This document shows, one piece after another, positions 23,396 to 49,650 of a stretch of 64,000 bases of DNA (positions are counted from its first letter, which is position 1; each line of letters starts with the position of its first letter). The stretch is from NCBI GenBank assembly GCA_027037535.1, contig JALVZQ010000005.1, positions 242,686 to 306,685 of the forward strand. The letters run 5' to 3'. Source of the stretch: Acidilobaceae archaeon (GTDB lineage Archaea > Thermoproteota > Thermoprotei_A > Sulfolobales > Acidilobaceae). The notes beneath the pieces were generated by a model, which saw only the letters and a list, made by a program, of their open reading frames with translations, made no database searches and was not told where the DNA came from. The position numbers and the translations under genes were made by a program.

Positions 23396-23509
23396 CATTT
23401 TGTTATATTTTACTAAATTATAACTATTAAATTTTAAAATTAATCTACTATTTAAGAAAAGATTTTATATAGCTATTATTATTATATACTATCTCATCGG
23501 GAGAACATT

Positions 23510-23914: not shown

Positions 23915-24048
23915 TATCGAGTATTCCGGAGAAGCCATAGTTTCGTAGAATAACTAGGGCTTCAAGAATTCTACCTTTAAAGGGGCTCATCGAGCTCGTT
24001 GAGTTGCTTTAAAGCCTTTTTAATAAGACTAATGCTATACCTTGTCAT
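23883..24048 (-). pseudogene. RelE/ParE-like toxin remnant (frameshifted and C-terminally truncated)
   Basis: Hand translation: MTRYSISLIKKALKQLNELDEPL then a stop. One frame over it continues FKGRILEALVILRNYGFSGILDIKKLRDYRIH then a stop. The ATG overlaps the stop of the upstream small gene (ATGA). Confidence 0.4.
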
Positions 24049-24257
24049 TTTAGCCTCCTAGGGACGTCCTCTAAATCAACAAGCTCCACTTTTCCTTTCA
24101 CTTTCTCATACTCGTACTCTCTTATCGCTTTAGCCTCGTCTGGTAAGGGTTCTTCAATGCCAATCAGTCGCTCTTCTAATAGGGCCTCAATACGCTCTAG
24201 TATACTCCTTAGCTCACGTAACTCGTTATATAATAATTTCTCTTTATTTACAGTCAA
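24045..24257 (-). CDS. putative antitoxin (small helical protein) coupled to the relE-like remnant
   Basis: 70 aa, charged and helical. Its stop overlaps the start of the toxin remnant by ATGA. Confidence 0.45.
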   Translation of the reverse strand: MTVNKEKLLYNELRELRSILERIEALLEERLIGIEEPLPDEAKAIREYEYEKVKGKVELVDLEDVPRRLK

Positions 24258-24362
24258 TAGTTGTCTCCTTCTTCAAGAATAGCTGGGTACTCGAAGTTCT
24301 TAATCTTTTACCGCCCTTGACAACCGAAGAAGCAGATAACGTAGATTAGAGTTAATGTTTAA

Positions 24363-24520
24363 TGGTGGGCCCACGGGGATTTGAACTCCGGACCTCCACC
24401 AAGCGAGAACACAACCATATGCAACAAAGCATACAATTGATATGCATGTAATCCAAAATCGTATATAGAATGGATATCAACGATGATATTAATCATCGCC
24501 AGATATGCATTAAAGGAAGA
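24363..24520 (-). repeat. att-like repeat copy 1: 45-nt tRNA-Val 3'-half remnant plus conserved module
   Basis: TGGTGGGCCCACGGGGATTTGAACTCCGGACCTCCACCAAGCGAG then AACACAACCATATGCA..GATATGCATGTAATCCAAAA..ATGGATATCAACGATGATATTAAT. Confidence 0.75.
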
Positions 24521-26339
24521 GAGATTATAAGGGCTGTATTAAGGGACTATTTTAATGGAGAAGCGGTATTGGATATGGACAGCTTTTATATCAGGTGGGT
24601 ATTGAGAATTATGCAACCAATACGTAAATTATATGGAGCAATAGTATTTTCTAGAAACGTTGATACTAAAATTAATGAATTTGGAAAGAAATTACATAAT
24701 GAGTTAAAATTACCATACTATGAATTTAAGCTAAATTACAAAGATAAAATTTCATTATTTATAAAATACATTAGGGATAAACATAGTTTAGGTTATACTG
24801 ATTTAATTAATATATATTTAGATAAAATTATAAAAAAGTTTTTAGAAATAAATAATTTAGACTATTCAAAGGATACTTTAAAGCTACTTATTATTGTCAG
24901 TTATAGAGAGGATGTAAAATTTCGTATGGGTAAGACAATTATTGATATTGATACCGAACCCTATTTGAGAATTCTTGAGCAAATTAAAAATAATGCTCCG
25001 GAAAAGAATTTACTCGCCTCTTTATATAATGTTTTCAACAGTGATATTGTTAAAAAAAGACCTCCTAGATTTATTTAAAAAAGCAGAGGAGATATCGAAT
25101 GAAATAAATGCTGATGTTTTTCTAGAAGCTATCGAAAGCACTATTAAACATAGTAACTTATCTCCTTCATTTTTCATTAAAATATATAATGAAATTATTA
25201 AAAATGTAGGACAAAAAGAAAAAATAACCAAAGCATTAGATAAAATAGAACAACGCCTTCGCACAATGGGTTCACGAAAAGTTGATATTGATAGATTATT
25301 AGTGTTAATAAACAATTTAAAAAGAGAATTTCGACCTTATAGGAATCTATATTTACTCTTGTTAATAGTGAGAGAGCGTATGTACAATATAATTAAATCC
25401 CACAAAGAATTATTTATAGAAGAGGTCTCAGAAAGAAGCAGTAAACTAAAAATCAAACCAAAAACAAAATTATCAATCTCTAAATTAAGAGAAATTGAGA
25501 ATAAATTATTTGGTCTCAATCATAAATTTCATATAATTAAAACAATAGATGCTGTTGTCTGGCCTTTGGGGATATTGCTAAGAGTAAATGGTTGGAGTAG
25601 AATAGGCATTATATATTTGATAGAAGCTGACACTAAAAACACAGAAACTCTATGGGAAGCCTTTGTAAACGAGATTTTAGCTGAAAACGCTAGAAAAATA
25701 GCTTATTCCGGAATAATAATTCCTATTTCTCCTAGACAATCTTTTATTTACAAAGATAATTCAACAGAGTCACCTCTCAATCCTAAGCAATCATATCACA
25801 GAAGAACATCTGGAGAAGAAACACAAGATGGCAACAGAGCAAAAAGATATCTTGAATATGTGGAGATAAGTAAAAATACAGGAAAAAGTGAAGTTCTAAA
25901 CTTAATAGAGAGATTATTTAATTTTATAGATAAAGCAAAACATTATGAATTACAATGGTCGAAAGACGATATGATTAAGTTTAGTGACTTTTTAAGATAT
26001 CAATTAAGGCTTTCTGATTTAATTACTACATTTCCTCTAACAAAAGATATATCATTAAAAATAAACAAATTAGAAAAAGAAATAATTAAAAAATTAAATC
26101 AAGAGTTCCCTGAAATACAACTAGAACGACCTCTTGATATATGGATATTATATGAGCATGAAAATCTTAGAAGAAAAGCTATTGACATAATTAGTTCATA
26201 TCTTTCTGAAATAACCAGTGAACCGGAAACCCTGGCTCAAGATATACTTGAAACGGCGTATATTCTAAGCGTTCTGGGTCCTTATATCCAGCAAGGTCAC
26301 CTACGCAAATATGTTTTAGAGGAACAACTTAATTCATAA
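24470..26339 (+). CDS. AT-rich orphan gene, two overlapping ORFs (202 + 454 aa) joinable by a +1 shift at an A7 run (25052-25058)
   Basis: Frame A reads ..SDIVKKRPPRFI then a stop. Frame B reads ..LLKKDLLDLFKKAEE through the same A7 run. No family recognised. The first ~15 codons (MDINDDINHRQIC) are echoed in repeat copies 3 and 4. Confidence 0.5.
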
Positions 26340-26558
26340 ATTGGGTGAAACCTTGTCATGCCTTATTTCTCAGTTATTTGATTATTTTCTTAAAACGGGG
26401 TTACTATTGGGTGTTAAACCACTCTCCTCTTCTGGTTATGCATGGGAGATTTCTGACCCGCGCATGAAGGTTGTTTTTTATAGCTATACTAACTCTCGCA
26501 ATATAATAGGATAGTTGAGGAGTTTCTGTATGGGTAGCCTAAACCAGACATATGGGAA

Positions 26559-26948
26559 GTGATACCGTTTGCTAAGCTATTAGGTGAGGTAGAAGTACCA
26601 GTCCCGCATTTATCGTATCGCAATCTAGAGCTTCCACCTTTTACAGAAGAACCGCTAGTATTGGTCTTTGTGGATTGGGACCTGTACAGCTATAGTAGAA
26701 TGAGTTCTGCCCGTAGAGCTCTGAGACGACGCATTGAACCATACGTAGACAAGATAAGAGATGATTACTTAAACCTGCTTATTATCGATATTAGAAGAGG
26801 AGTAGAAGAGGCTCTAGGAGAAATATTGAGTGGCTTGGTTTTCGGTCTCTCAGTTTCATCGTTAATATTAATGGGAATACCGGGCTATCGTGTCTATCTA
26901 CAGGTTAAATTTCTCGACTCTAGTTCCAGGGAAATCGTTCCTTCTTGA
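26559..26948 (+). CDS. hypothetical protein, convergent with the defence operon
   Basis: 129-aa ORF with one C-terminal hydrophobic segment. Overlaps the 3' end of 26920-27438 by 29 nt. Confidence 0.3.
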   Translation: MIPFAKLLGEVEVPVPHLSYRNLELPPFTEEPLVLVFVDWDLYSYSRMSSARRALRRRIEPYVDKIRDDYLNLLIIDIRRGVEEALGEILSGLVFGLSVSSLILMGIPGYRVYLQVKFLDSSSREIVPS

Positions 26949-27438
26949 GGCCTATGTACGTCTTCTCGATAGACTTTACAAATTGTTTAAGGGTAGATGA
27001 CATTATATCTAGTACTGGAGGTGCTATGGTTGTATTTCTCTTAGTTGGTGTGGTTAGCGATTTTGAGAGTTCTAGTGTTATATCAAGCATACCAGCTAAA
27101 GCTGAGGCTATTCCAGGATATTCTTCTTCTAATAGTCTCTCAAGAAACTTATGCCATCTATTATAATTCCTTGCCCGTCTTAGAAGTATAAGATAAGCTC
27201 CTACTAAGGAGCCTAGGTCTTCACGTATTGTATAAGTTCTTCTTTTCTCTGTCACTTCTACTGGTATAACTGCACCATACTTTGAGAGAGTCGTTAGTAG
27301 ATTGTTGAAGATCTCATCCACATACTTCCCCTTTAGTCTAATAATTGTTGATTCCTTAGTTGTACCTCCTATGCTGAAGAATAGTTCCGGCTTCTTCGAA
27401 TACTTCCTGTAAGTTAAATAGAATGCATAGCCTTCCAT
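26920..27438 (-). CDS. hypothetical 172-aa protein, last gene of the BREX-like operon
   Basis: Starts 7 nt after the PglZ-like stop. No motif recognised. Confidence 0.5.
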   Translation of the reverse strand: MEGYAFYLTYRKYSKKPELFFSIGGTTKESTIIRLKGKYVDEIFNNLLTTLSKYGAVIPVEVTEKRRTYTIREDLGSLVGAYLILLRRARNYNRWHKFLERLLEEEYPGIASALAGMLDITLELSKSLTTPTKRNTTIAPPVLDIMSSTLKQFVKSIEKTYIGLKKERFPWN

Positions 27439-27445
27439 AATCGAG

Positions 27446-28282
27446 TCACCTCCCGGGAAGTACAGTTAAAAACAGAGAGAACCTACTGAAAAGAAGTAAG
27501 GGGATATGATTTCCTTTTATTTGCCTTTTAAAACCATGTAAAACATAGATGTATTTGGAACCTGGGTTGTAGATTATGTCGTAGCCGTGGTCCGCGGTAA
27601 CCAATACTATACCATTTAAGGCTTGATTTACAATTTCATCTAAGATTCTATTTATGTCTGTTTTTTCTAGGAACTCTTCTATGCCCATGGAGCCATATTC
27701 GTGTACCTTGAAGTCAAAATAAGCGCTTTTATGGTATCCTTTTGCATGAAGTCTTTCAGCTAGTAGACGGGCATACTCTCTCAAAACACTTCTATAGTCT
27801 AGGCCTGGGAGTTGCTGAGTTACATACCTTGTGAGACCAATGGGATTCATAAAGACAAGATTGGGAGTTACTGTCTTGAACCCTTGTAATCTAGAAGCGG
27901 CTGATATAAGGATAAACTCGTTTAAAGACATACAGTCGTAAACCATTACGTAATCTATTCTTGTGAAAATCTTCATTATCTCTTTGGCAATAGCTGATAT
28001 GTTTGCATTTTCAACTAATATGGGTTTTTTAGAGTTAAGGATATTCTGTAATTCTAGTATAATGTTCTCGAAAACAGGGCTCAGGTCTTTCTTGGCCTTG
28101 AAAAGAAGGGGTTTAGGGATTTTTTCTTCTAAAGGCTTGAGCGCAATCGTGGCTGGGTCATAATTTTTGATTATTTTATATATTGATGAATAAACTAGTG
28201 CCTTATATACATTATCAATATTATATCCACTTAGTAGTTTTTCCACATGGCCGACAGCTCTATCTATATACGTGGCCAGCAA
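27446..28282 (-). CDS. minimal PglZ-like alkaline-phosphatase-fold protein (278 aa)
   Basis: IDYVMVYDCMSLNEF, NPIGLTRY, FDFKVHEYG, VLVTADHGYD and VLHGF follow the metal-ligand order of PglZ / alkaline phosphatase domains. Confidence 0.6.
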   Translation of the reverse strand: MLATYIDRAVGHVEKLLSGYNIDNVYKALVYSSIYKIIKNYDPATIALKPLEEKIPKPLLFKAKKDLSPVFENIILELQNILNSKKPILVENANISAIAKEIMKIFTRIDYVMVYDCMSLNEFILISAASRLQGFKTVTPNLVFMNPIGLTRYVTQQLPGLDYRSVLREYARLLAERLHAKGYHKSAYFDFKVHEYGSMGIEEFLEKTDINRILDEIVNQALNGIVLVTADHGYDIIYNPGSKYIYVLHGFKRQIKGNHIPLLLFSRFSLFLTVLPGR

Positions 28283-28286
28283 TTGT

Positions 28287-29714
28287 TTATCCCCTCACAC
28301 GGACACCTAACCTTTTCGGTTGAAACTCGTGCGGCGACATCTCCGACAGTATATTCACGATGTATTGCCTCATTTCCACAGCTAGTTCTCCTACCTCTTG
28401 AAGCTCTCTTTTATCGAATTCTGCATGCGGATATAGTACCTTTAGTATCCCTGAGAGGAGTTTTCTCACAGCCTTCTCGTCTCTTATAGTATAATTTCCT
28501 TCTAATTCAAATAACTCGTCTACTATCGGCTCGTAACTATATGATCTAAGCCTGTGGAGTATCTCTGAAAGGTAGTCTGCAGCTAACCCATATCCCCTCG
28601 CTAGGTGAAGAGTGCTTTTTGAAATCTTCGGTAGCTTCCAGCCAGGCAATAATCCATGGATTCTATCGATTAGTGCTGTATCTTTCATGAACTCTGGAAG
28701 ATAATCAATTATGCTTCCATAGACTCCCTCCGCGCTTAACTCCACGTTTCCAACGAAAACTAGGCTACATGTACTGTGTGCCCTCTTCAGTAATCCTCTT
28801 TCGAAGTGGCCGTCAACCATATAGTCCTTGAGCTTGGAAACCATCTCGTCAGGATTCGTGAACCTGACCTTTGCAATCTCATCGAAGATAACTGCGTCTC
28901 TTGTCCCAATATCGCCGAGAATACGTAGCCTAGCGTGATAGAATAGCGTTGCAGCACTTATGGTTCCTCCAGCGTATATTCTCGTGTAGTATGAAATGTT
29001 TCTGTAGAGGTAGGTTTTACCTGTTGCTCGAGGGCCGAGCTCCATCAGGTTAACGTTTCCCTCAGCTAATGGTACTAGTCTAAATAAAAGGAGGAGTTTT
29101 TGCTTCCAATTATACATGTCTGGGTTTAACCCGATGCTTTTGATTAGAAGTTCAACCCATTCTTCCAACGTAAACTTTCGTCTTCCTTCTATGAAGGAAT
29201 TAAGGTCAATGTTATAGACCTGGAATGGTTCGAATTCAACCATTATAAGTGGTGTAAAGGGAACCCTCTCCTTTCCCCTAGAGGACATGGCCTCTGCTAT
29301 CTCAGGCCTATACTCGAGGACTCCTATTCCCCAGAGTCCCGATAGTATTCTCTCATATCTCTCTACTATGGAATCGCTTACTAGGGCATCGTAGATTTGT
29401 AGGTTAGGTATATGGAGATAATACATGTTTCTTTTTAAATTAACTACAACCTTGTATTCATCTATTAAAGTTATCCTGCCTCGCCTTTTGGCAATGCTGA
29501 GAACCCTATCCTTCTCGCTGGGATCAGGATAATACTCGCGGACTATGCGTGCAACTGTCTCCTGCCATCCTATGGGGTCTTTCCTATAGTATTTTGATAT
29601 AAGATATTCTGCTATAAAGCGTGGAAGTCGTGAGACCACCTCTAACCTAGCCAGACTCTTCTCTACTGCTGTGTCTCCAAATACCTCTAATACCTTCTCA
29701 TCCGTCAGCTTCAT
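28287..29714 (-). CDS. BrxL-like AAA+ ATPase lacking a Lon protease domain
   Basis: Walker A ELGPRATGKT, Walker B DAVIFDEIA, and blocks LKDYMVDGHFERG, LVFVGN, IDRIHGLLPGWKLPK and GLAADYLSE that parallel BrxL as I recall it. Ends at 475 aa. Confidence 0.7.
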   Translation of the reverse strand: MKLTDEKVLEVFGDTAVEKSLARLEVVSRLPRFIAEYLISKYYRKDPIGWQETVARIVREYYPDPSEKDRVLSIAKRRGRITLIDEYKVVVNLKRNMYYLHIPNLQIYDALVSDSIVERYERILSGLWGIGVLEYRPEIAEAMSSRGKERVPFTPLIMVEFEPFQVYNIDLNSFIEGRRKFTLEEWVELLIKSIGLNPDMYNWKQKLLLLFRLVPLAEGNVNLMELGPRATGKTYLYRNISYYTRIYAGGTISAATLFYHARLRILGDIGTRDAVIFDEIAKVRFTNPDEMVSKLKDYMVDGHFERGLLKRAHSTCSLVFVGNVELSAEGVYGSIIDYLPEFMKDTALIDRIHGLLPGWKLPKISKSTLHLARGYGLAADYLSEILHRLRSYSYEPIVDELFELEGNYTIRDEKAVRKLLSGILKVLYPHAEFDKRELQEVGELAVEMRQYIVNILSEMSPHEFQPKRLGVRVRG

Positions 29715-29727
29715 TCTATCACACTCA

Positions 29728-32700
29728 TTAGGGTAGGAATCTATCGAAGCTCCGCTTAACCGTGTAGTAGTCGCCGAACACTTCCTTTACGATTTGCTCT
29801 TTGACGGGTTCACCTAGTGTGATTGATACTTTGACTGTACCAGTCTCTTTTGAAGAGAGTCTTGAGATCAGATTGAGTACCACTCTCCAGTCTCTGAGCG
29901 TGTCGACGTCGACGTCCCTGATTGCGAATGATAGATTTGCTTTATTTGTTTCCAGTTGAAATACTAGTTCATTCACGGTCGCTTTATAGTGTTCAATAAA
30001 CACGGTCAACTTCTGCTGGACATCGTCAACGTTAAACCCTGAAGGTAGCTCGAGGCTAATGCTAGTTATCTTGGTTTCACCAATAAATCTAGGTTTTACT
30101 TCTACGACGGAGTCCCTGGTCGCCGGAGTAAAAGGCTTCTGAGCAGATACAGGCGGCAAAGCTATAGTCGTAGGTGGAACCTCTTCTTCGGGGGTTTCTT
30201 TGTGTTTAATGTTAAATACTATCAAGCCATTGGCTTCATCAACTATGATTTCAATAGTTTTATCGGTTAATTCTATCGTCTGCTTATGAAGATATCTTAT
30301 AGCCTCTCGTGCGACAATCGCACTCAGAGGTTTAACGTCATAGCTTCCTTGCAATAAGTTCTCCAGGACCTCATCTATTCTATCGCTCTCCCTTAGGTTT
30401 CCTGACTCGAACTCTCTCCTATACCAGTCGAGTACCACTCTCATTAGCTCAATGGGCTTGTGATGGTAGTTTAAGGAATTAATTATACTTCTCAAATATC
30501 CGTTGAGAATAGAAGTATATTTTTCTAAGTTCTTAGGCGCTTTGTACTCGCCTAATCCTTCTGTCGAGGAACTGATGGTTGGAGGAATGATTGTTTTACT
30601 AACGAATCTCCCTTCGTCCAGGCTGTAATAAATTGCCTTAGAATATAGTGATAATATCTCGGCGACGATTTCCCTGGAAAGAGTCACTAGTTGTCTCTGT
30701 GCTAGCCTCCTTGCTTCACTTATCTCGCTTTCAAGTTTACTTTTAAGTCCTGCAAGATGCTTCTCCTTCAACTCTTTCGTGTAGATCTCCATTAGGTTTT
30801 TTCTTTTTGTTAATGTATCCTCGTATTCTCTTAGGCGCTCCATTAAGACGTCGCTACTCTTCTCTAAGTAGTGTAGGAATCTCTTGGTTCCCTCGTAAAC
30901 TACGAGTTTGTCAAGTAACTTGTCTAATCTGTGTTTCGAGACGTTGGGGACGAGAACTACGATATGGAGTGGACGCTGGATTTTACCCTTGTCGACCTCT
31001 GCCTGCAGACGTCCAGCCAATCCTTCTACGAGCTGATCATATCCGGTTTTTTCCTTGTATAGTCTGTTGTATAAGTCTAGATCCCATACTGGAATAATTG
31101 AAAAGAGGAGCTTGCCTTCTCTCTGAGCGTTTACAAAAGCGTGGTTAGACGTGAATACACTTGTATCCCATACTTTGTTGAATTCGATTAGGGAAACAAC
31201 GACATCCTCGGCTCTCCCATCCACCACTACCTTAACATTTGCGAAAAGGGAGGGGACGGTTCCTTTTTGACGTAGATATAGGGGAATAATTGTTTCCTTC
31301 TCGATGTTCCTTCTTTCTTCCTGTACAAATGCAGTCAATTTACTATATATCGTCTTAAAGAAGGAGGGTAAGAGGAATCTCTTTCCCTTAACTTCTCTCT
31401 CCTCGATTCTAGCACTCTCCGCCTTAAGCTTTTCCAATGCTTCTCCTAAAAGCTCGAGAAGCCTGAAGGACTCGGCTTCACGGTGACTCTGTATTATTTC
31501 AACCTGCATCTCTTCAAGGGTCGAGCCATATCTCTCGATTTCCCTTTCATCCTCTGATTCGACTAGGGCTAGAATATTTGCTGTTACTCCCTTAGCGAAA
31601 ATGTATTTTGCCGAGAACTCTGCTGGATAGCGGTATTTCTCCTCTATTTTCTCAAGCGCCATTTCTACGTCGGATGCTGCTTGAATCCAATCTCCTTCTA
31701 ACTCGCCAGTAAGTTTGGCTTGCAGAGTCTCGGGTAAGCTGAGGTGTTTGAGGCCTATAGTGTAGGAGTTTGTCGCATCTTCTCTTAGAGCTTTTTCTGC
31801 AGCTTCCGCAGCTATGTACAGGATTGTTCTAACATACTCTGTTCTTGGAAGGTCTCGGGGATTCATGGCCTTCCTGAATAGTCTTATTAGACCTAGGGAG
31901 AAGGGGTAGAACTTCTCTAGTTCGCCCTTAAACGATTCTAGTGATTCTCTAAGGTTTAGCTGGCTTGCGATTAGTTTTAGGTTAGAGTAATAGGCGTCTC
32001 GAATATCTGAGAGATTTGATACTGTGGGCTTCAATAATCTATGGATCGCTATCTCGATCGCGTGAGAGGGACTATAGGATAGCTCTCCTATCCCGGTTCC
32101 TGCAAGGCCTCTGCTATATCTCTCTCGGAGACCATCTAGGTCTCCAAGCATCCCCTCTATCTTGGAATGTATTACCTTGTTATCCTGGTGTTTAAGCATT
32201 ATTAATTTAATATCTCTCCTATCTTGCTCGGCAAGCACCCATACTACTATAGCTGAATAGGGTTTTCCCTGAAGCTTTTCATACAGGTAGCTTAGGAAGT
32301 TGATTATAGAGTTTGTCTCGTAATATATCTCGTGTGCCTTGCCCTCTTCCCCTTGAATCAGAAAGTCAGCGTATCGACGTACACGCTGAGCAAGCCCATA
32401 ACCCAATTCGTCTACAAGTAATAAGAGTCTAGGCCTCTTGCAACCATACTCATTACACTTCTCGAGAATCTCTACGATGAGCCCAGCTAGCTCGTCGGAG
32501 GAGAGACTGTAGAGCTTAGTCTTGTCGTATCGTGAGAGAACCCTCCTGACAGCCTGTATTAGTCTTCCATCCTTCACCTTTACAACTGGATGATCCATGT
32601 TAGAGTAGGCCTCTAAGAGTGAGACTAGTTTCGTGAGAGGCTTTTCCTGAGAAAAGTCCATTCCTAGCACTAGAGTCTCCCTTACAATATCTCTAGGGAC

Positions 32701-33030: not shown

Positions 33031-33032
33031 GA

Positions 33033-36000
33033 CTAACTCACCTCGCCTCTCACTAACTTAAGGAGAGTAAGAACTGCGAGCTCACGGGAAACCTCTGAAG
33101 ACTTATCGCCAGAGAAAAGATACCTCTCGAGACCAACAGTCCTAGCCTCCTGCAAACCAAGGTCTGCGCCCCTAGCCGTCTCTAGCAGGAGTACTGCTAG
33201 CGCCGCAGACTCGCGGATGCCCTCATTGCCCCACTCCCTAACCCTACGGAGTATGTTCTTAGCCCTCACACCAGGTGCTCCCGTCTCATTCAACGCAAGG
33301 TATACTAAGTATATTGCTCTCCCCGGCGCAAGCTTTGAGAACCTATCCCATGAAGTCTTAGCGCCAGCCGCAGTAAGAGCTTCAAATAGAACAGGGTAGA
33401 AAGCTTTACCCTTCCTCTCCTCCTCACTACTACTGGCCAGCTTCTCGCCTACTAGACCTATCTCTTTAAGCCTATCAATATCATAGCCCAGCATCTTAGC
33501 TATAGTCTGTGCAAAGTCATAGCTCAAGGGTAGAGGCTTATCCCTATACTTTCCAGACTCGAGGTCAACACGGCTAACAAACCATAGCGTAACAAAACTA
33601 CGCGTAGCAGGATCCATCAACATTGCATGACTAACAAGCTCCGATACCCTAGCAGCGTCTCCATTACTAAGCCGGACAGGACCAGACTCCCTAAGTATTC
33701 TACCTATTACGGGCATAACGAAAGCCTCATCAACAAGCGTTGACGCCGCATCAAACAATGGCTCAAACCTGTCAAGACCGGGCACCTCAAACCTCGAAGC
33801 AACACTCAAAGCAGTGCCAAGCATGAGAGCCATCATATCAGCAGGACTAGCACCAGCATCCCTAGCAACCCTCCTCGACTCCTCCACAGCCTCCCTAGCA
33901 GCAGACCGGAAAGCAGAGTTCTCCAACAAACTCCTCCTAACATCAGCTCCAATCTCAACAAGCCTCCTACGCTCATACTTACGGGCAACAATTATGAGAC
34001 TAGTCTCTTGAGCAACTACATTAACCTGGCCCTTATACCTGGTCTTCATCTCAGTCTTAACCGGCCAAACACGAGACACCACATAGCCAGCCTTGTAGAG
34101 CGACTCGCCTACAGTCTTCCAAGCAACATCAGTTGGGTGAGTAAACCACAATACTAGAACTCCGTCATCTCGCAGAACCTTATATGTTTCCTTCACGAAT
34201 TCGGAGAAGAACCTCTTAAACCTGTCAGAAGAGTCCCTCTTATCATAAGTCACGACCTCATTCTCCCTAGGAACCCTGGGACTACTCCAGCTCCAACCAG
34301 ATACCATTAACCTATCCCTGAACAGGAGTTCGAGCACCGGGCGTAGACTCCTCCTCAATATAACCCAAAAGAACTCGCTCCTATCACTATAGATAACCTG
34401 CTCGAAATAGGGAGGATCAACATTAACAACATCAACACTATTCACCCCAAGAATATTAGAAAGCCTTGTAGCGTCCCCCAGGAAAACACTAACCCTATCG
34501 CCGAGACCTGAGTCCTGAAACTCCTCGACAAGGAACCGAAGAACAGGGAGAATACCGCCTTTCGTTCTTGTAGGATTTGAAGATTCAGCAATATCGGTTT
34601 CAAGAGCCCATTCAATATTCTTATAGATCGGAATGGCTTCGGCATATTCTTGGCGGAAGTCAAGCGTACTTTCTCCTCTCATAGCTGGCGATATTACTGC
34701 ATTTCCACGATGCCATGTAGTCGATATTGTATTATAGTTAGTCATTTTGTCTATGGCGAACGCCAAGTAAAGTGCTACTGCTGCTCCAAACTCGCCGTTA
34801 CTTGAAGCTAGTTTTTCTGCTGCCTCGGCTACTATTTTTGATAGTTTTGCTAATGCTAGAAGTTGCCTCGGGTTGTATAGCATGTACCAGTGTGTAAGTC
34901 CCTTGTTCCTAGCTGTGCTTGCCCATTTGTTGTCTGGGGGTATTGGGTCTAGTGGTATGTAGTCTTGTAGTTCTAGTATTTCTTTTGAGAGGTCTCTGTA
35001 GGCCTGCAGGAATCTTTCTCGTTCCTCCTCGTCATCCCATATCGCTGTGAACCCGTTTCCTACCTGCTTGACTAATGGTATATGTGTAGATAACAGCCTC
35101 TCCTCTAGTTCTGGTGTAACCTCTTCGTACTCCTCTACTACTCGTCTCATTAGTTCTGCGTGTTCGAGGAACCATTTGTCAAAAGCGGTTGTTCCTGTTT
35201 TTGCTCTTCCACGTAGCTGGAACCACCTGCCGCAGTACGGGCATTTTATATTGTAGCCTCTCTTCTCGTAGGGTTTACTGGGTTCCTTATTGACTGTCTC
35301 TATATGGAATATTTTCCTTTCTTTATCGTATTGAATCTTGAGATATCTGTTTTTGAAACGTGTAGCCTTAGTTATTATAGGGGCGACTCCTTGGACAGGT
35401 ATTAGTCCTCCGCAGAAGGGGCATCTTACCCCTCTCGCGAAAATATATCCATCATTTTTTGTATAGTATTTTCCTAATTCTTCCCTAGCCTTATTGATAA
35501 ACTCCTTAGCAGCTCTAAGAGTCTCCTCGAAAAGCCCCGAGTCCGCATACTTAGCGGGAAACTCTACAGTAGCCCTTGTGACGAGGTAAGCTACGGGGTT
35601 GTAGTCAATAGCTATAGTTTTAAAACCAAGCCTGAGACTCTCTAATGGAATACTGCCTCCACCAGCCATAGGGTCCACAACAACAATTTCCTTTGATTCT
35701 CTACGGTATTGTTTTGTAACAATATTCTTGATTTCGTTTCTTTCAGGTCTTGTGTAGAATAGGAGAGGAGGCATCTTGTTCTTTTTAGCTTTTTCTCGTG
35801 AATTATATCCTATTAACTTGAGAAATAGATTTTCGTCTATATCATTATGCAGAACACTTGCTAATGTTAATGCTCTTGCAACTCCAGCGGGTCTTCTTGC
35901 AAACCATGTGTGGATGCTTCTAAGTTTAGGGTCGAAATATCCTCGAAAAACTTTGAAGCCAGCCTCTAAAATTCCGTCCTCGTTAATCTCTCTGAGCGGG

Positions 36001-36041
36001 AGTTTTTCCTCGATGAATTTCTTTCTTATCATTTTACTCAC
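33033..36041 (-). CDS. DUF1156-type Zn-ribbon DNA methyltransferase (N6A/N4C class), 1002 aa
   Basis: IHTWFARRPAGVARAL (DUF1156 block), motif I VVDPMAGGGSIPLE, CPFCGG..CPYCG ribbon, motif IV VNVDPPYFEQVIY. Start is GTG 36041 or ATG 36032. Confidence 0.85.
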   Translation of the reverse strand: MSKMIRKKFIEEKLPLREINEDGILEAGFKVFRGYFDPKLRSIHTWFARRPAGVARALTLASVLHNDIDENLFLKLIGYNSREKAKKNKMPPLLFYTRPERNEIKNIVTKQYRRESKEIVVVDPMAGGGSIPLESLRLGFKTIAIDYNPVAYLVTRATVEFPAKYADSGLFEETLRAAKEFINKAREELGKYYTKNDGYIFARGVRCPFCGGLIPVQGVAPIITKATRFKNRYLKIQYDKERKIFHIETVNKEPSKPYEKRGYNIKCPYCGRWFQLRGRAKTGTTAFDKWFLEHAELMRRVVEEYEEVTPELEERLLSTHIPLVKQVGNGFTAIWDDEEERERFLQAYRDLSKEILELQDYIPLDPIPPDNKWASTARNKGLTHWYMLYNPRQLLALAKLSKIVAEAAEKLASSNGEFGAAVALYLAFAIDKMTNYNTISTTWHRGNAVISPAMRGESTLDFRQEYAEAIPIYKNIEWALETDIAESSNPTRTKGGILPVLRFLVEEFQDSGLGDRVSVFLGDATRLSNILGVNSVDVVNVDPPYFEQVIYSDRSEFFWVILRRSLRPVLELLFRDRLMVSGWSWSSPRVPRENEVVTYDKRDSSDRFKRFFSEFVKETYKVLRDDGVLVLWFTHPTDVAWKTVGESLYKAGYVVSRVWPVKTEMKTRYKGQVNVVAQETSLIIVARKYERRRLVEIGADVRRSLLENSAFRSAAREAVEESRRVARDAGASPADMMALMLGTALSVASRFEVPGLDRFEPLFDAASTLVDEAFVMPVIGRILRESGPVRLSNGDAARVSELVSHAMLMDPATRSFVTLWFVSRVDLESGKYRDKPLPLSYDFAQTIAKMLGYDIDRLKEIGLVGEKLASSSEEERKGKAFYPVLFEALTAAGAKTSWDRFSKLAPGRAIYLVYLALNETGAPGVRAKNILRRVREWGNEGIRESAALAVLLLETARGADLGLQEARTVGLERYLFSGDKSSEVSRELAVLTLLKLVRGEVS

Positions 36042-36204
36042 TCTCTTTTGGGTTTGTAACTATTATTTTGCCGTTTTCGTAGTACCATGCTATTTTGTCT
36101 CCTTCTTTGAGGCCTAGGAGCTTTCTTACCTCGCCGGGGACTGTTGTCCTGTTGTATTTTCCTATAATTGTAACTTTTAGGAGTCTTCTTTGTAATCGTG
36201 GCAA
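36034..36204 (-). CDS. SpoVT/AbrB-type small DNA-binding protein (56 aa), first gene of the operon
   Basis: Below the ORF-track size cut-off. Hand translation from TTG 36204: LPRLQRRLLKVTIIGKYNRTTVPGEVRKLLGLKEGDKIAWYYENGKIIVTNPKESE. This matches the AbrB swapped-hairpin signature. Its stop overlaps the methyltransferase start. Confidence 0.6.
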   Translation of the reverse strand: MPRLQRRLLKVTIIGKYNRTTVPGEVRKLLGLKEGDKIAWYYENGKIIVTNPKESE

Positions 36205-36220
36205 GGTCGCTTGTCACCTG

Positions 36221-36255
36221 CTTATATAGAATTCTATAGGCTTTCCTATAAAAGG
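36221..36255 (-). promoter_or_regulatory. candidate archaeal promoter of the BREX-like operon (two TATA-like boxes)
   Basis: The minus strand reads TTTTATAGG and CTATATAAG about 45 and 22 nt upstream of TTG 36204. Confidence 0.35.
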
Positions 36256-36788
36256 CGTCGCCGCCTCTCGCTATATAATACGAGCTTTAGCTTAATAGTG
36301 CTTCTATGGAACAGGTCTCTTCACTGGGAGGAGAGATAATCTTCTGGAAACACGTCCTCAGGATGGCGGGGGAGTGGAGCCCGCTTGAACAGGCAAAAAG
36401 CCCTACTAGCGAGTTCGAGCCGGGGCTTTGGAGTAGTAATGATTGGTGCTGCTACTATCTGGGCGTAGGGGAGAGTAGTAAGCGAGCAGGCTACATATAT
36501 TTTCCGCTAACTGGGTGAGGATTAGAATACCCAGCTAGACTACCGTCAGCTCAATGAATAAATTACGCAGAATAGGCGTGCAGGCGAAGGAGTTCAGGAA
36601 GCTCGCTAACCGAGTACTGGAGGAGCTGGCGCACATGCACAACATCCGCCTCAACGCCGTAAACCCCATTATGAGCAGGGAATTGCGGTTACCGGGACTA
36701 GTTATGTGAATGCGCGGGACTGGGCGGACAAACTATCGGGCAAACTATTCGACATTTACATTAACTGGTTAAAGGAGAAAGGCCAAAT

Positions 36789-37352
36789 CTAACTTCCCTT
36801 TTTTATTAGTGCGGCTATCTCTCTTACCAGCTTCTCTATCCTCTTATAGGCGTTCTTGATATCCTTCTTGGTGCACCAGCCCTCGTAGAAGCAGACATGC
36901 ATTTCGGTCGCGCTGGCCCATGAGTCGTGAACCCATTCCCCGAACTCATCTCCCAGCCTCCTCTTATACTCCCACAGCTCTCCATGACTTGTTAATCTCT
37001 TACCCTCCCTCCAGTAAGCGTATGCTTTAATAGCTATTGCTGCCGCGCCCCATAGTTTCTTGGCCGCCTGCCTGACATTACCCTTACCAAGCTCCTCACG
37101 TGCCTCCTCCAATAGGTCCTCAGCAGCCTCGATATACTCCAAGGCCCTATCCCGGGGATCTAGGCCTTGGCTTAGGAGCTCGACGAGGTACTCATCGACG
37201 CTAAGACCGTATTTTTCAGCCTTCTCCCGGACCCGCCTGGCTAGACGGCCCCGAATAACCAGCGCCTCAGCCAACCTTGACGCCTCTAAAACAATAATAT
37301 TGGCTCCACGGCTAAAAAGAATAGCCGAAATGGCGGACAGGAACACGTACAT
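36789..37352 (-). CDS. PaREP1-family (HEPN-like) protein with N-terminal RHH-like segment
   Basis: KYGLSVDEYLVELLSQGLDP..AAKKLWGAAAIAIKAYAYWREGKRLTSHGELW..EMHVCFYEGW matches the PaREP1 pattern known from Thermoproteales and Sulfolobales. Confidence 0.6.
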   Translation of the reverse strand: MYVFLSAISAILFSRGANIIVLEASRLAEALVIRGRLARRVREKAEKYGLSVDEYLVELLSQGLDPRDRALEYIEAAEDLLEEAREELGKGNVRQAAKKLWGAAAIAIKAYAYWREGKRLTSHGELWEYKRRLGDEFGEWVHDSWASATEMHVCFYEGWCTKKDIKNAYKRIEKLVREIAALIKKGS

Positions 37353-38262
37353 AGCTAACGCTGTGGAAACGTAGCCCGCAGAGCAGTTCGTGGAGTAGGT
37401 TGCCGAGGTGGGTGAGAGACCCTACATACTATACTATGTATGGGGCGTCAGGGGGTTGTTTCCCGCACACTCCTCCATATTTTATTTAATATAGTAAGGA
37501 GATAAACGCAGACGCTCGACTTCCCACTTCCCGGCTGGCCCTATACACACGGGGCCTGATGACACAGGTCCGCCCGGAGTAGAGGGTTTGCAGAGGTGTC
37601 GGCGGGGATTAGACTGTTACGGTGTCTTCTTCCTCGGTTGCGGCACATATGCCCTCCTCAGCGTGGATGTCGAGTATTTTTCTCCGCTAGCTCGCATGCG
37701 GTGGCCTCGTATACGCCTCATCTTTCTAGCGATGTAGTCTGCCACGTAGCGTGACAGTGGCTCTAGTTTGCGCATGTTGGGCATCAGCCTTACCTCTGCC
37801 TCTATCTCTTCCAGTGGCTCCTGTGTGTCGAGGCCTCGTATACTAAGGCCTTCCTGGACCAGTATTCCGCGGATGCTCCTCTTCCTCACCTTCCACACGC
37901 CGTACTAGAAGCCGAGCCTGGCAGCGAGGCCGGATAGCCCTCCTATCGGATGAAGACCTTTCGAGCTCATTGGTTATCGGCGTTGTTATCACTATCCCGT
38001 CCCTGCGCACGTGCATCCATCCGGGGGAGGCCGTGCTCGGCGAGGACCCCTATCCTGCTCCAGAGGTCTGTAGGTATATCCTTGACTAGTTTCTGGTTGT
38101 GGTTGATGGTTGGCTTCCCTCACAGCCTCCCGGATAACGGTCTAGAATACCTCCTCTTGCTGTAATCTCGCATTTGTTAGCCTCCTACCCGCACCAGATG
38201 TGATGGGTGCAATTGTTCGGGATTGTTTGCTACCGGCACCAATTAGTAGGTAACCGGCTTAG

Positions 38263-38610
38263 TTAGATGGAGATCGAGCTTAGCCAAAACTCCTTAACTT
38301 TGTCTAAAGTAACTAGAGAGATGAAGGGGTTGAAGAACTCATATCCCCGGCCGTAAAGCGCGGTTACGACCTTACACAGAATTAACTCAATATCAACTGT
38401 GTTCGCATCAATCCTTATCTGACCGAGCTTGGTCTTGCGGATACCTGTAGTATCCCTTAGCTTCTCCCAGTCTTCTTTTTGTAGCCGGACCAGTATGTGG
38501 AGACCCCCATGGATTGAGAAATAGTCAGAGTGTTCCAACTCGTACAAGAGTCTCGTGAAAGCCGAGAAACTATCGAAGAGGAGCCTCCGTTGCCTCGCCC
38601 GCATACTCAT
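38263..38610 (-). CDS. hypothetical protein
   Basis: 115-aa ORF abutting repeat copy 2. No motif recognised. Confidence 0.3.
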   Translation of the reverse strand: MSMRARQRRLLFDSFSAFTRLLYELEHSDYFSIHGGLHILVRLQKEDWEKLRDTTGIRKTKLGQIRIDANTVDIELILCKVVTALYGRGYEFFNPFISLVTLDKVKEFWLSSISI

Positions 38611-38711
38611 AAAAGAGTATGAAAAGGCGATGAACCAAGCCGACGAGAACCTCTACACTCGTGCAGGTGTAGTTAATTTGATGAAGGAATCCACGGGAGA
38701 CAAGTGGAGAG

Positions 38712-38850
38712 TGGTGTGGCCCGGGGGGTTTGAACCCCGGGGCCTCCACCAAGTGAGAACACAACCATATGCAATAATCCATACGACAAATATGCATTGA
38801 GTCCAAAAAGTATACTAAATAAGGATATAACTGAAGACTGAAGATTTCAA
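38712..38850 (-). repeat. att-like repeat copy 2
   Basis: TGGTGTGGCCCGGGGGGTTTGAACCCCGGGGCCTCCACCAAGTGAG then AACACAACCATATGCA..AAATATGCATTGAGTCCAAAAA..AAGGATATAAC. Confidence 0.7.
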
Positions 38851-38872
38851 TCACCATTAGATTGTATTAGGA

Positions 38873-39172
38873 TTGCTCTATCTCATGCTAGCTTTAAGAG
38901 AGCTGGGTGAGTCAAATAACTCTTGGGGAGACGGTGTGGAGCGGAAGTTTAAATGGATTGAAATAAATCCAAATGTTTGCCATGGTAAACCAGTGTTCAA
39001 GGGTACAAGAGTCCTTGTGGCTGATGTTCTTGAAATGATTGCATCCGGTATGAGTATTGAGGAGATTTTAGAGGAGTATCCCCAGCTAAACAAGGAGATG
39101 ATTCTTGAGGCAATAGCTCTTGCAGCCGAGCTCCTTAGGAGGGAGAGACGTGTCATACCAATTCCTGCTTGA
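38873..39172 (+). CDS. DUF433-family antitoxin-like protein
   Basis: INPNVCHGKPVFKGTRVLVADVLEMIASGMSIEEILEEYPQL is the DUF433 signature. Confidence 0.75.
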   Translation: MLYLMLALRELGESNNSWGDGVERKFKWIEINPNVCHGKPVFKGTRVLVADVLEMIASGMSIEEILEEYPQLNKEMILEAIALAAELLRRERRVIPIPA

Positions 39173-39422
39173 CGAAAACGTGCCCAGAACAATTTTTAAG
39201 CTACTAAGACAGAAAGGCTTCCACGCCGAATATGTACCTCGAGGTATTGACGATAGAACAGTTATTGAAATAGCTAGAGAAAAGAACTTGGTACTAATTA
39301 CAAGAGATAGCGATTTTGCCGACGAGTTGAGGTATCCGCCTAACTCCCATCCGGGCATTATTGTGCTTCACATCCATCCCTCACTACCAAGGGTGATGGC
39401 TGAACGCCTTGTATTCTTGTGA
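39150..39422 (+). CDS. DUF5615 / Mut7-C-like PIN-related toxin partner of DUF433
   Basis: FLLDENVP..LITRDSDF pattern. GTG 39150 is preceded by GGAGGGAGAG; the track ORF starts at 39120. Confidence 0.65.
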   Translation: MSYQFLLDENVPRTIFKLLRQKGFHAEYVPRGIDDRTVIEIAREKNLVLITRDSDFADELRYPPNSHPGIIVLHIHPSLPRVMAERLVFL

Positions 39423-39522
39423 AGAATATCAAAGAGCTGAACGGAAAGATTATAATAGTATATAATGATAGAATAGAGATTATTGGAAAATAACAATTTT
39501 CTTAAAAGTGTTACCAGTTAGG

Positions 39523-39690
39523 TGGTGGGCCCGCCGGGATTTGAACCCCCACCTTCGCCATGTGAGAACGTCATCGTATGCATTTAATCATTATCATTGA
39601 TATGCATGATAATCTAAAGTGATAAACATTATGGATATCCAGATTAATATTAACAACTGTGCAATATGCATGATGTTAGACGGAGTGTTC
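39523..39690 (-). repeat. att-like repeat copy 3
   Basis: TGGTGGGCCCGCCGGGATTTGAACCCCCACCTTCGCCATGTGAG then AACGTCATCGTATGCA..GATATGCATGATAATCTAAA..ATGGATATCCAGATTAATATTAAC..CAATATGCATG. Confidence 0.7.
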
Positions 39691-39710
39691 TACTCAAGTT
39701 AGGAAAATCT

Positions 39711-40064
39711 TTACTTTAAGCCAAAAATATTACTTAATTCATCCTTAACCTTAGCTAGAGCCTCTTCAGCAAGTCTGCCAACGATCTTCACAACTAATTT
39801 CTTCTCCACAGTAAAAATACTCGAACAATCTATATAGCTTGGCTCCTTCTTTAAGCGGCCAATGGCTAAGTCTGATTGTTTTATCGCTATTCTATTCAAC
39901 CCAGGAGAGCTGGTTATCTTTGCTACTACCATATCGTCGCCTAAGTTTATTGCATTTAATACCAAGACAGGCCTTAGTTTAGAGCCTAGTAAGTCTGTGA
40001 AGGGAAGCTCTAGGATAACAATATCTCCTTGTTTATATTTCGAAGAGTTCTTCGGCATCCTCAC
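39711..40064 (-). CDS. mazF: MazF/PemK-family toxin
   Basis: KQGDIVILELPF..GSKLRPVLVLN..VVAKITSS pattern. Confidence 0.75.
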   Translation of the reverse strand: MRMPKNSSKYKQGDIVILELPFTDLLGSKLRPVLVLNAINLGDDMVVAKITSSPGLNRIAIKQSDLAIGRLKKEPSYIDCSSIFTVEKKLVVKIVGRLAEEALAKVKDELSNIFGLK

Positions 40065-40224
40065 CCTCCCTTAAGAGCCTAAGATATGAATAGAGCTTCT
40101 CCGCATCGACTCCCTCAACTTCTACTATCTTTATCTTGACCTTCTTACCCTCAAGCTCCGTTAAGGGTTTGAGCGGAATAATCACACCGCCCTTAACAAT
40201 ACCCTCTACCTCAGACATCTTCAA
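40033..40224 (-). CDS. DUF104-like small antitoxin
   Basis: VEGIVKGGVIIPLKPLTELEGKKVKIKIVE matches the DUF104 pattern. Overlaps the mazF-like start by 32 nt. Confidence 0.55.
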   Translation of the reverse strand: MKMSEVEGIVKGGVIIPLKPLTELEGKKVKIKIVEVEGVDAEKLYSYLRLLREGEDAEELFEI

Positions 40225-40323
40225 AGCACCACGTGTTACTACTGCTACAGAAGGGTAATCAAGTTACCCCACACTGTCTCCTTTATTCTTGGTAACATTG
40301 CAGAAGCTAATTCGATATATGTT

Positions 40324-40480
40324 TGGTGGGCCCGCAGGGATTAGAGCCCCCGAACCTCCGCCGTGTGAGAACACAACCATATTCAATGCTGTACATCAAC
40401 AATACGCATGTAATCCAAAAAGACTATCAACAAGGATATGCAAGGTGATATTAATTATCATTGGATATGCAATGGCTCTT
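40324..40480 (-). repeat. att-like repeat copy 4
   Basis: TGGTGGGCCCGCAGGGATTAGAGCCCCCGAACCTCCGCCGTGTGAG then AACACAACCATATTCA..ATACGCATGTAATCCAAAAA..AAGGATATGCAAGGTGATATTAAT..GGATATGCAA. Confidence 0.7.
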
Positions 40481-40523
40481 GTAATTCCAACTAATTTATA
40501 TGATGAGCATGTGGCTTCTATTT

Positions 40524-40928
40524 CTAATCTCCAATATAAATAACATTTTCCATATTTCTGAATAACTTATCTCAAGTGACGAGTTTGTCCTGCTTTAGCA
40601 TTGCAATAGAATATACTATTGCATCAGCTAGGCTAGGTGTTCTTAACCTCAGCTTTTTAGATAGCTCTAATAATTCCAGATATATTTCAGAGGCTTTCAG
40701 CGATATCTCTATATCGATTGTTACTACTTCCGTCTTGCTAACAATAAACAGTAATCTCTTTAGAATATCGTCTTCATTGAAACCCTCTCTTCTATATTTC
40801 CTAGCTACTTCAGCTAAGACTATCGATGGAGTGTACCCTTCCTGAGTCTCCAGAAGTCGCTTCACGACAGCACCCTTCTCACTACCTCTAAAATACTCAA
40901 TCCACGCATATGTATCATATACAGGCAA
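40524..40928 (-). pseudogene. vapC: PIN-domain VapC toxin with an in-frame TGA where the conserved Gly of the T-G-D motif is expected
   Basis: MPVYDTYAWIEYF.. PIN start. The ORF stops after ..DKLVT (TGA 40574-40572), yet the same frame continues DKLFRNMENVIYIGD to TAG 40526-40524. Confidence 0.65.
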
Positions 40929-40933
40929 ATCAC

Positions 40934-41140
40934 TTATCCCCTATCCTCCATCCTATCCTTCTCTGTATACGGCTTAACCCTGCCCCTGTCAATACCAAAC
41001 ATGTCCCTGGGAATACCAGCTTTTTCGAGAACTAATTCTTCCAATACTTTCTCTGGGGTGGACATGCCCTGCTCCCTTGCAATTCTAACCAAAATATCAT
41101 ATATACTCTTCTTCACCTTAATAGTCTCCGACAATCTCAC
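40934..41140 (-). CDS. vapB: VapB-type antitoxin (RHH-like)
   Basis: 68 aa immediately upstream of vapC (5-nt gap). Basic N-terminal strand-helix pattern. Confidence 0.55.
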   Translation of the reverse strand: MRLSETIKVKKSIYDILVRIAREQGMSTPEKVLEELVLEKAGIPRDMFGIDRGRVKPYTEKDRMEDRG

Positions 41141-41228
41141 ATCCCAAGCTTATGATAGGAAACGCCTCCTCATATCCTTTACTTAAAGCTCAGATAATGT
41201 TTTGAAGCACATGGAAAGTTCCCATAGG

Positions 41229-41306
41229 TGGTGGGCCCGCGGGGATTTGAACCCCGGACCTCCGCCGTGTGAGGGCGGCGTCCTGACCAGGCTAGACGAC
41301 GGGCCC
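41229..41306 (-). tRNA. tRNA-Val (CAC), CCA encoded
   Basis: Reverse complement GGGCCCG-TC-GTCT..GGAC-G-CCGCC-CTCACAC-GGCGG-AGGTC-CGGGG-TTCAAAT-CCCCG-CGGGCCC-A-CCA folds as a cloverleaf. Confidence 0.95.
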
Positions 41307-49572: not shown

Positions 49573-49650
49573 TGGTGGGCCCGCGGGGATTTGAACCCCG
49601 GACCTCCGCCGTGTAAGGGCGGCGTCCTGACCAGGCTAGACGACGGGCCC
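49573..49650 (-). tRNA. tRNA-Val (UAC), CCA encoded
   Basis: Identical to the 41229-41306 gene except one base in the anticodon (CTTACAC loop). Confidence 0.95.

Follow-up and report, generated by a model that had tools for sequence, protein, structure and literature searches.

Integration into tRNA genes and the capture of decaying elements at such sites are textbook features of hyperthermophilic archaea, where they have been described singly and each with its own, often split, integrase. A stretch of 64,000 nucleotides of an Acidilobaceae archaeon (GenBank assembly GCA_027037535.1, contig JALVZQ010000005.1, positions 242,686 to 306,685 of the forward strand; hereafter the window) raises a related question: what are the units that lie in a row beside its tRNA-Val(CAC) gene, each ending in a partial copy of that gene, and how were they brought there? 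At least five units, inserted successively at the 3' half of tRNA-Val(CAC), form a tandem array in the region 23397-41306 of the window. Coordinates refer to the window and are collected in Table 1, and L numbers denote loci used for comparison.

A tandem array at the tRNA-Val(CAC) gene

Four direct repeats of the 3' 45 nt of tRNA-Val(CAC) were found, as had been proposed in the first-pass annotation of this DNA, which was made from the sequence alone. Each repeat extends from the CCA end as far as the anticodon loop's 5' edge, reads TGGTGGGCCC...GTGTGAG on the plus strand and is referred to here as a copy of the attachment site (att). The alignment showed one orientation for all copies, and in all four the tRNA sequence switches at ...GAG to a non-tRNA module, here called the arm, that faces the tRNA. 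A profile of att plus arm recovered the four copies with nhmmer E-values of 1e-34 to 1e-45 and otherwise matched only the 3' halves of real tRNAs in the window. A 38-nt tRNA segment searched with up to three mismatches matched copy 1 and both tRNA-Val genes of the window and nothing else; its chance expectation was 0, and no match was found in 100 shuffles. GAGAACACAACCATATGCA and ATATGCATGTAATCCAAA were each matched in three copies, with expectations of 0.00 and 0.05, respectively. The copies cannot function as tRNAs, as also annotated before: neither ARAGORN nor Rfam called a tRNA at any of the four. Moreover, their T-arm and acceptor pairs are disrupted in different ways from copy to copy.

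In each unit, att and arm sit at the tRNA-distal end. The window contains three toxin-antitoxin cassettes of 0.8-0.9 kb with one pair apiece (units A, B and C), and the toxin-antitoxin units of the window and its relatives together range from 0.65 to 1.0 kb. The first-pass annotation had started the array at 24363 and counted four integrations. Successive recombination into the 3' half of tRNA-Val(CAC) was borne out, but the left edge and the count had to be revised. Because RelBE homology extends to the left of copy 1 and a related strain diverges at 23396, the island comprises 23397-41306 and at least five units, of which the fifth, unit E, is decayed. The sequence 23884-24400 is 83% identical to the RelBE cassette of L008, which adjoins tRNA-Val directly, and the related strain (L001) is 99.3% identical across the 11.5-kb left flank up to its divergence after the thioredoxin gene. 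No further units were detected within the large unit D at nhmmer E <= 10.

The window also contains a tRNA-Val gene with the anticodon TAC. Its 3' 38 nt are identical to those of tRNA-Val(CAC), and 43 of the 45 att nucleotides are common to both genes, the differences being confined to the anticodon loop. No unit was found alongside tRNA-Val(TAC), and every array observed is located at the CAC isoacceptor. Since the TAC gene bears no array despite the 43 common nucleotides, this hints that the anticodon loop beside the arm junction belongs to the recognised sequence.

The arm adjoining the attachment site

The arm had been described as identical in the four copies. It is related in all four, but the copies are only about 65-85% alike. 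Its conserved length is about 105 bp, ending at the third ATATGCA motif, and it consists of five blocks of direct repeats at fixed spacing, of which three are ATGCATAT-like and two are GATATC-like. On the tRNA strand the blocks read ATGCATATC, RATATC, GATATC, TTGGATTACATGCATAT and CATATGGTTGTGTTCTCAC, and the last one enters the anticodon loop. Measured from the junction, the motifs are located at +35, +68, +80 and +98 in almost every copy. The blocks are invariant and the spacers vary in sequence at constant length; indels are nearly absent, though the substitution frequency matches that of the gap-rich proximal spacer. The plus strand of the window contains ATATGCAT five times, in each case inside an arm.

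The arm does not look like coding sequence. Its column entropies at the three codon positions were 0.84, 0.83 and 0.80, which gives no third-position excess and no codon periodicity, and in most copies stops were found in every frame. The same in-frame TGA is common to arms of types I and II on at least seven different cargos; thus, the arms were already non-coding in that frame when they were joined to the different cargos. Full-length proteins with an N-terminus encoded by the arm were found neither by a profile search of 5.8 billion clustered proteins nor by an exhaustive hidden Markov model (HMM) search of 1.84 billion representatives. RNAalifold on 15 units paired only the tRNA-derived part, Rfam gave no match to the arm, and no covariation was detected. 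In addition, neither a conserved sequence at the opposite end of the units nor a conserved second arm was found, and the blocks are one-sided only. The arm is hence a block-conserved, non-coding element of fixed spacing and not a random flank. We regard it as a putative one-sided protein-binding arm of the attachment site, and it may have descended from the 5' region of an integrase gene.

Five separate stretches of P0009, a predicted protein of 2516 aa, match the att-encoded part of the arm peptide. P0009 may be a mis-called open reading frame (ORF) over a run of tRNA-like repeats.

The same units in related archaea

Related loci were searched with a pattern composed of the junction and the first two arm blocks, which contains only 3 nt of tRNA and reaches close relatives only. 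Matches were obtained at six loci in one-genome-per-species contigs and at four metagenome loci, two of the latter being the same contigs. All matches came from metagenome-assembled genomes of Desulfurococcales/Acidilobaceae or from hot-spring metagenome contigs. A tRNA-Val 3' half precedes every match, and no arm free of tRNA-Val was found in the related genomes, so that the association with tRNA-Val claimed in the first-pass annotation stood. Profile searches identified no fewer than four further arrays at tRNA-Val(CAC) among other Desulfurococcales/Acidilobaceae. Overall, about ten other contigs of this group contain cassettes bounded by att plus arm, some the same as in the window and some different, and the order and combination of the cassettes vary.

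In Candidatus Hestiella acidicharens (L008/L012), tRNA-Val(CAC) is followed by RelBE, MazF with AF2212, RelE, DUF433 with DUF5615, and TopoVI genes. The order in L009 is tRNA, PIN with its antitoxin, MazF with AF2212, and DUF433 with DUF5615, and in L004 the MazF/AF2212 cassette lies between the tRNA and the chromosome. Orthologues of unit A were found in L033 (VapC 95% identical at the amino acid level), those of unit B in L004, L006, L007, L009 and L008/L012 (74-97% identity, with att at both borders) and those of unit C in L008, L009 and L010. Homology between orthologous cassettes ends at the att edges. The MazF cassette is at position 1 from the tRNA in L004 and at position 2 in the window, L008 and L009, and the RelBE cassette is tRNA-proximal in L008 but the most distal one in the window. 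The comparison with L004, where the MazF cassette abuts the intact tRNA, showed exactly one unit more in the window, namely unit A with its arm and att, between the tRNA and cassette B. These arrangements do not agree with the word scars, by which the copies had been taken as dead leftovers of independent autonomous elements; att plus arm instead bounds compact units that recur elsewhere.

Other loci combine such parts differently. L010 has a unit with an SDH-type protease in place of the MazF unit of L009. L009 and L010 are alike in the end of cassette C, in att and in a 50-nt stretch of arm that is identical between them, after which their cargos differ; the att sequences adjoining this stretch differ at 7 positions. 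In L006, a thioredoxin flank of the window type (90% identity) is joined to a B-type remnant and cassette B, and C, D and E are missing. The arm of L033 consists of halves of two arm types, though its VapC is 95% identical to that of the window. L003 and L016 possess units with larger cargo of unassigned function, in which relatives of the left end of unit D adjoin the same att and arm. The differences among these arrays exceed what differential decay of one ancestral array would give, and deletions surely contribute. Finally, two assemblies of one locus, L013 and L014 (window 31893-52576), differ at 25 positions, of which 14 cluster within 290 bp of mazF, 5 in the DUF5615 gene and 6 in the 5' part of the methylase gene, which looks like patchy allele exchange or strain mixing in cassette genes.

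L023, L024, L029 and other contigs of related strains and species for the most part stop at tRNA-Val(CAC) or no more than a few hundred bases away from it, which is consistent with assembly breaks at a repeat-rich, strain-variable array.

Search for a recombinase

The first-pass annotation reported no integrase gene in the 17 kb beside the tRNA, and this was confirmed: in searches that covered contigs and collections, not whole genomes or raw reads, Pfam, PHROGs and NCBIfam identified no integrase domain in the ORFs of the island. A six-frame Pfam scan for an integrase pseudogene in 37350-38711, the only ORF-poor stretch, was also negative. No recombinase was found in the larger related elements of L003, L010 and L016 with Pfam, PHROGs and NCBIfam, elsewhere in the window in gene tables and ORF scans that covered most of the remainder, or in the gene tables of other loci. 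Moreover, no proximal border showed an int(C) or Phage_integr_3 signal; there, the distance between att and the cargo genes is only 88-100 bp.

The integrase gene of Aeropyrum pernix spindle-shaped virus 1 (APSV1; L030, NC_028268, 1445-1500) provides a comparison, as it contains an att equivalent to the 3' part of tRNA-Val(TAC) and reaching into the 5' strand of the anticodon stem. This att occupies about codons 27-40 of the 520-codon gene, which runs sense to the tRNA. The integrase gene of SSV1 is oriented oppositely. With the APSV1 integrase as the tblastn query, att alone was matched.

Several candidate integrase sequences were rejected. The ATG of ATGGATATC does not mark a conserved start of a gene; in copy 1 it heads an orphan ORF that arose by deletion and fusion. 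This ORF, 24470-25078, is neither a gene begun by the arm nor an integrase: its start is a fusion artefact, it has no family matches, and its C-terminal 150 aa together with ORF 24975-26339 form a frameshifted homologue of the 594-aa protein P0003. The P0003-type gene of L016 begins about 900 bp past the arm, behind another gene. The AlphaFold model of P0003 was poor (pLDDT 51), and its Foldseek matches were meaningless. P0008 (70 aa), considered as an int(N) reading the tRNA-Val att, is a spurious ORF over an intact tRNA gene. ORF 38555-38800 on the plus strand, which enters att copy 2, was considered as an SSV-type int(N) and showed no similarity in phage and plasmid collections. The SSV1-like geometry, in which int would be antisense to the tRNA and the arm the start of int(C), was also discarded: the plus-strand frames that cross att and enter the arm are stopped in nearly all copies, and the flanks to the left of the att copies are mutually unrelated.

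How the array may have been built

As the units carry cargo only, either toxin-antitoxin pairs or a defence island, and no recombinase, an enzyme that moves them must act in trans. We consider it somewhat better than an even chance that the units are non-autonomous, att-bounded cassettes that were inserted at the tRNA by such an integrase. A circular unit would recombine, inside the common 45 nt, either with the tRNA or with one of the att copies that the array already contained, which would restore the tRNA and leave att plus arm as the distal border, and repeated insertion would build the array. The enzyme would most likely be a tyrosine integrase encoded by a virus or element that targets the same tRNA-Val site, and the arm would most likely be its accessory binding region. 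Toxin-antitoxin cargo would favour retention of the units, older units would decay as their toxins are truncated and att and arm are lost, and homologous exchange between arms would produce mosaic arms. Rescue of integrated elements by an exogenous integrase has been documented (PMC7253208, PMC8371274).

Several observations weigh against movement in trans. Att plus arm was not found in IMG/VR viral contigs or in plasmid and phage collections, in which APSV1 matched att alone, and neither a cognate integrase for the tRNA-Val(CAC) site nor a circular or attP-form junction was found. The sampling is thin, as about a dozen contigs, mostly short, were available. Toxins are truncated (VapC, DUF5615 and RelE in the window and MazF in L008), which fits decay over maintained function. 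In orthologous MazF cassettes, the whole-arm conservation was 0.64, compared with 0.61 for the proximal spacer and 0.81-0.85 for the genes; because the value for the arm barely differs from that for the spacer, the arm outside its blocks and spacing looks neutral or frequently swapped. Finally, the arm lies where the promoter and 5' end of an APSV1-type integrase gene would stay after integration, and arm plus att on the minus strand forms an ORF of 45-48 codons with a conserved ATG position, which is open through att in copy 1, L012_8783 and L033/P0006.

The last of these points also belong to the main rival explanation, in which the copies are passive remnants of separate viruses or plasmids, each with its own suicidal integrase of the SSV type. 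In that case the arm would represent the int promoter together with int(N), with attP near the 5' end of int and int sense to the tRNA as in APSV1; int(C) and the rest would have been deleted, and toxin-antitoxin pairs would survive because their loss is toxic. The APSV1 geometry puts the promoter and int(N) against the distal att, precisely at the site of the arm. As in SSV-type elements, the att here consists of a tRNA's 3' part beginning at the anticodon loop, direct repeats are located at the unit borders, and the host belongs to the hyperthermophilic crenarchaea, in which traces of int(N) are well documented, as are captured elements that degenerate at tRNA genes (PMC3119797, PMC8371274). 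The truncated toxin genes in several units fit as well. However, the arm has no codon periodicity and is conserved in blocks with variable spacers, arms on at least seven cargos share the in-frame TGA, the short proximal borders contain neither int(C) nor Phage_integr_3, and an int(N)/int(C) coding signal or a full-length homologue is lacking even among the 5.8 billion clustered and 1.84 billion representative proteins. More than ten elements would have to be trimmed independently to one format of 0.65-1.0 kb. Up to five units are in tandem here, whereas tandem insertions or arrays have reportedly never been observed for suicidal integrases and are known for classical ones (PMC7253208, PMC6563490). 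We therefore regard passive remnants as possible but unlikely.

Homologous recombination alone is improbable. Att plus arm, about 150 bp, would serve as portable homology by which the host swaps cassettes after DNA transfer, and this agrees with the mosaic arms (the 50 nt shared by L009 and L010 and the two-type arm of L033) and with the clustering of the 25 single-nucleotide polymorphisms between the two assemblies in mazF, DUF5615 and the methylase gene; a Campbell-type single crossover within the 45 nt would also yield the same structure. It does not explain, however, why unrelated cargos carry a tRNA-Val half whose limits are precisely the CCA end and the anticodon-loop edge, why the arm has phased palindromic blocks, or why tRNA-Val(TAC) is array-free. 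Moreover, 45 nt that have diverged by 15-35% are a poor substrate.

A functional RNA is effectively refuted, whether the copies are taken as 3' halves of split tRNAs or as a different tRNA-derived RNA led by the arm: split tRNA genes are known in Desulfurococcales and the CCA end is present in the copies, but the break is at 31/32 and not at the 37/38 intron site, T-arm and acceptor pairing is disrupted in a different way in every copy, neither a tRNA nor any other Rfam family was called, the arm showed no conserved structure or covariation, and matching 5' halves were not found beside an intact tRNA-Val(CAC).

Comparison with known mobile systems

With the arrays of classical type II, lambda-like integrases, the array has in common that one tRNA att is used repeatedly, giving head-to-tail arrays (PMC6563490, PMC7253208). 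There, an integrase gene is found beside att in each element; here, none of about 20 units contains one.

Cis-mobilizable elements (CIMEs) accrete at the att sites of integrative conjugative and integrative mobilizable elements (ICEs and IMEs) in bacteria; they are flanked by att and carry no recombination or transfer genes. Similarly, units A, B and C and their orthologues are flanked by att and carry no such genes. CIMEs also stand in tandem at tRNA-type sites and are presumed to be moved by the integrase of a related element (concept in PMC5704250). In contrast to CIMEs, the units described here are in an archaeal host and are much smaller, no cognate autonomous element was identified, and their arm of phased repeats is one-sided.

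Similar to integrons and super-integrons, the array is one-directional, consists of short cassettes at a fixed point, each with its own recombination site, and varies in content; its cargo is rich in toxin-antitoxin and defence genes, and the cassette order is shuffled between genomes. Different from integrons, the array is headed by a tRNA gene without IntI, and the neighbours are a 109-aa ORF without matches and a UMP kinase gene. The recombination site combines a tRNA half with a direct-repeat arm, for which RNAalifold gave no folded attC hairpin, and the cassettes are whole operons in either orientation instead of promoterless ORFs. The array could nevertheless be an archaeal counterpart of integrons, with tRNA-Val(CAC) as the fixed insertion point, a tRNA-half-plus-phased-repeat-arm site in each cassette and a shared pool of toxin-antitoxin and defence genes. 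A recombinase encoded elsewhere or by a passing element would insert, excise and reshuffle the cassettes and could belong to a family that is unlinked to any known integrase gene context. We hold this only tentatively and think it doubtful. Among known systems, bacterial CIME accretion and integron arrays come closest, but the array described here does not show all the features that define either of them.

Cargo genes and neighbouring sequences

Table 1. Features of the tRNA-Val(CAC) array, listed from the tRNA outwards, and the second tRNA-Val gene of the window
Feature	Coordinates	Strand	Description	Evidence
tRNA-Val(CAC) gene, intact	41229-41306	-		ARAGORN; Rfam tRNA, 63.8 bits; alignment with the copies
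Chromosomal attachment site anchoring the array	41229-41273		tRNA-Val(CAC) 3' half, CCA end to anticodon loop	
Unit A, VapBC cassette	40324-41228	-	905 bp	nhmmer E 2.8e-45 (copy 4)
Unit A, att copy 4	40324-40368			
Unit A, arm	40369-40471			
Unit A, VapC/PIN toxin	40572-40928		118 aa, premature stop relative to the 134-aa orthologue	Pfam PIN 1.8e-14
Unit A, putative antitoxin	40934-41140		small ORF upstream of the toxin	
Unit B, MazF/AF2212 cassette	39523-40323	-	801 bp	nhmmer E 1.1e-39 (copy 3)
Unit B, att copy 3	39523-39567			
Unit B, arm	39568-39671			
Unit B, MazF/PemK toxin	39711-40064			Pfam PemK 1.9e-12
Unit B, AF2212-like antitoxin	40033-40224			Pfam AF2212-like 3.1e-5
Unit C, DUF433/DUF5615 cassette	38712-39522	+	811 bp	nhmmer E 2.2e-34 (copy 2)
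Unit C, att copy 2	38712-38756			
Unit C, arm	38757-38867		decayed	
Unit C, DUF433 antitoxin-like gene	38873-39172			Pfam DUF433 6.7e-24
Unit C, DUF5615/PIN-like toxin	39120-39422		C-terminal frameshift relative to 113-aa orthologues	Pfam DUF5615 8.8e-17
Unit D	24363-38711	.	14.3 kb	nhmmer E 1.9e-42 (copy 1); Pfam, NCBIfam; L013 gene table
Unit D, att copy 1	24363-24407			
Unit D, arm	24408-24510			
Unit D, AT-rich gene	24470-26339		frameshifted, function unassigned	
Unit D, L003-like gene fragment	26360-26948			
Unit D, BREX-like defence cluster	26920-36204	-	172 aa, 278 aa, BrxL, 1100 aa, DUF1156 methylase, MazE/AbrB-like	Pfam, NCBIfam
Unit D, PaREP1	36789-37352			
Unit D, GC-rich stretch at tRNA-proximal end	37353-38711		55% GC; short ORFs only	no family match in six frames
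Unit E, decayed RelBE cassette	23397-24362	-	proximal att is copy 1	
Unit E, RelB-like antitoxin	24048-24257		intact	tblastn with RelB
Unit E, RelE	23886-24048		cut to residues 1-54, frameshifted	tblastn with RelE
Unit E, 134-aa ORF	23510-23914	+	AT-rich; replaces the lost distal att and arm	
tRNA-Val(TAC) gene	49573-49650			ARAGORN

The BREX-like cluster of unit D contains brxL, a Lon-like protease gene (28287-29714), and a 1002-aa methylase of the DUF1156 type with a weak match to the 'anti-phage-associated DUF1156' model. The 1100-, 278- and 172-aa proteins had no family matches, and PglZ and BrxC domains were not detected in the cluster.

The frameshifted AT-rich gene in unit D has 28% GC in a genome of 45% GC, and its intact form is P0003. 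No family match was obtained for P0003, and a search of 5.8 billion protein clusters gave only four relatives. Genes of this family are near the same att and arm in the window and in L016 (1068-2852), and another one was found in L017.

At the left edge of the array, beyond the point where the related strain diverges, L001 (1-1668) contains a heavily decayed, AT-enriched att plus arm, a small membrane-protein ORF and an AT-rich gene truncated at the contig end. To the right of the array, at 45663-47671 of the window, a molybdopterin oxidoreductase gene is split into parts of 215 aa and 390 aa (167 aa in the NCBI annotation); it is a single gene of 668 aa in L023. The split gene is probably a pseudogene or the result of an assembly frameshift.

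Implications

Integration into tRNA genes and tandem arrays are themselves already known. The literature that was searched contained no description of lineage-wide, sub-kilobase, integrase-less toxin-antitoxin and defence cassettes that end in a tRNA half plus arm at one tRNA. What the array adds is a recurrent format across a lineage, in which sub-kilobase, cargo-only units with a standard composite end are stacked at one tRNA and shuffled among genomes.

According to reviews, archaeal integrases need no essential helper or directionality factors (PMC8371274). If the units are indeed mobilised in trans, the arm of about 105 bp would be the first candidate for an accessory (arm-type) site of an archaeal integrase, and the array would provide a concrete reason for why assemblies break at tRNA-Val(CAC). 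Under the same condition, the array would constitute an archaeal platform for the exchange of toxin-antitoxin and defence cassettes, comparable to integrons or CIME accretion.

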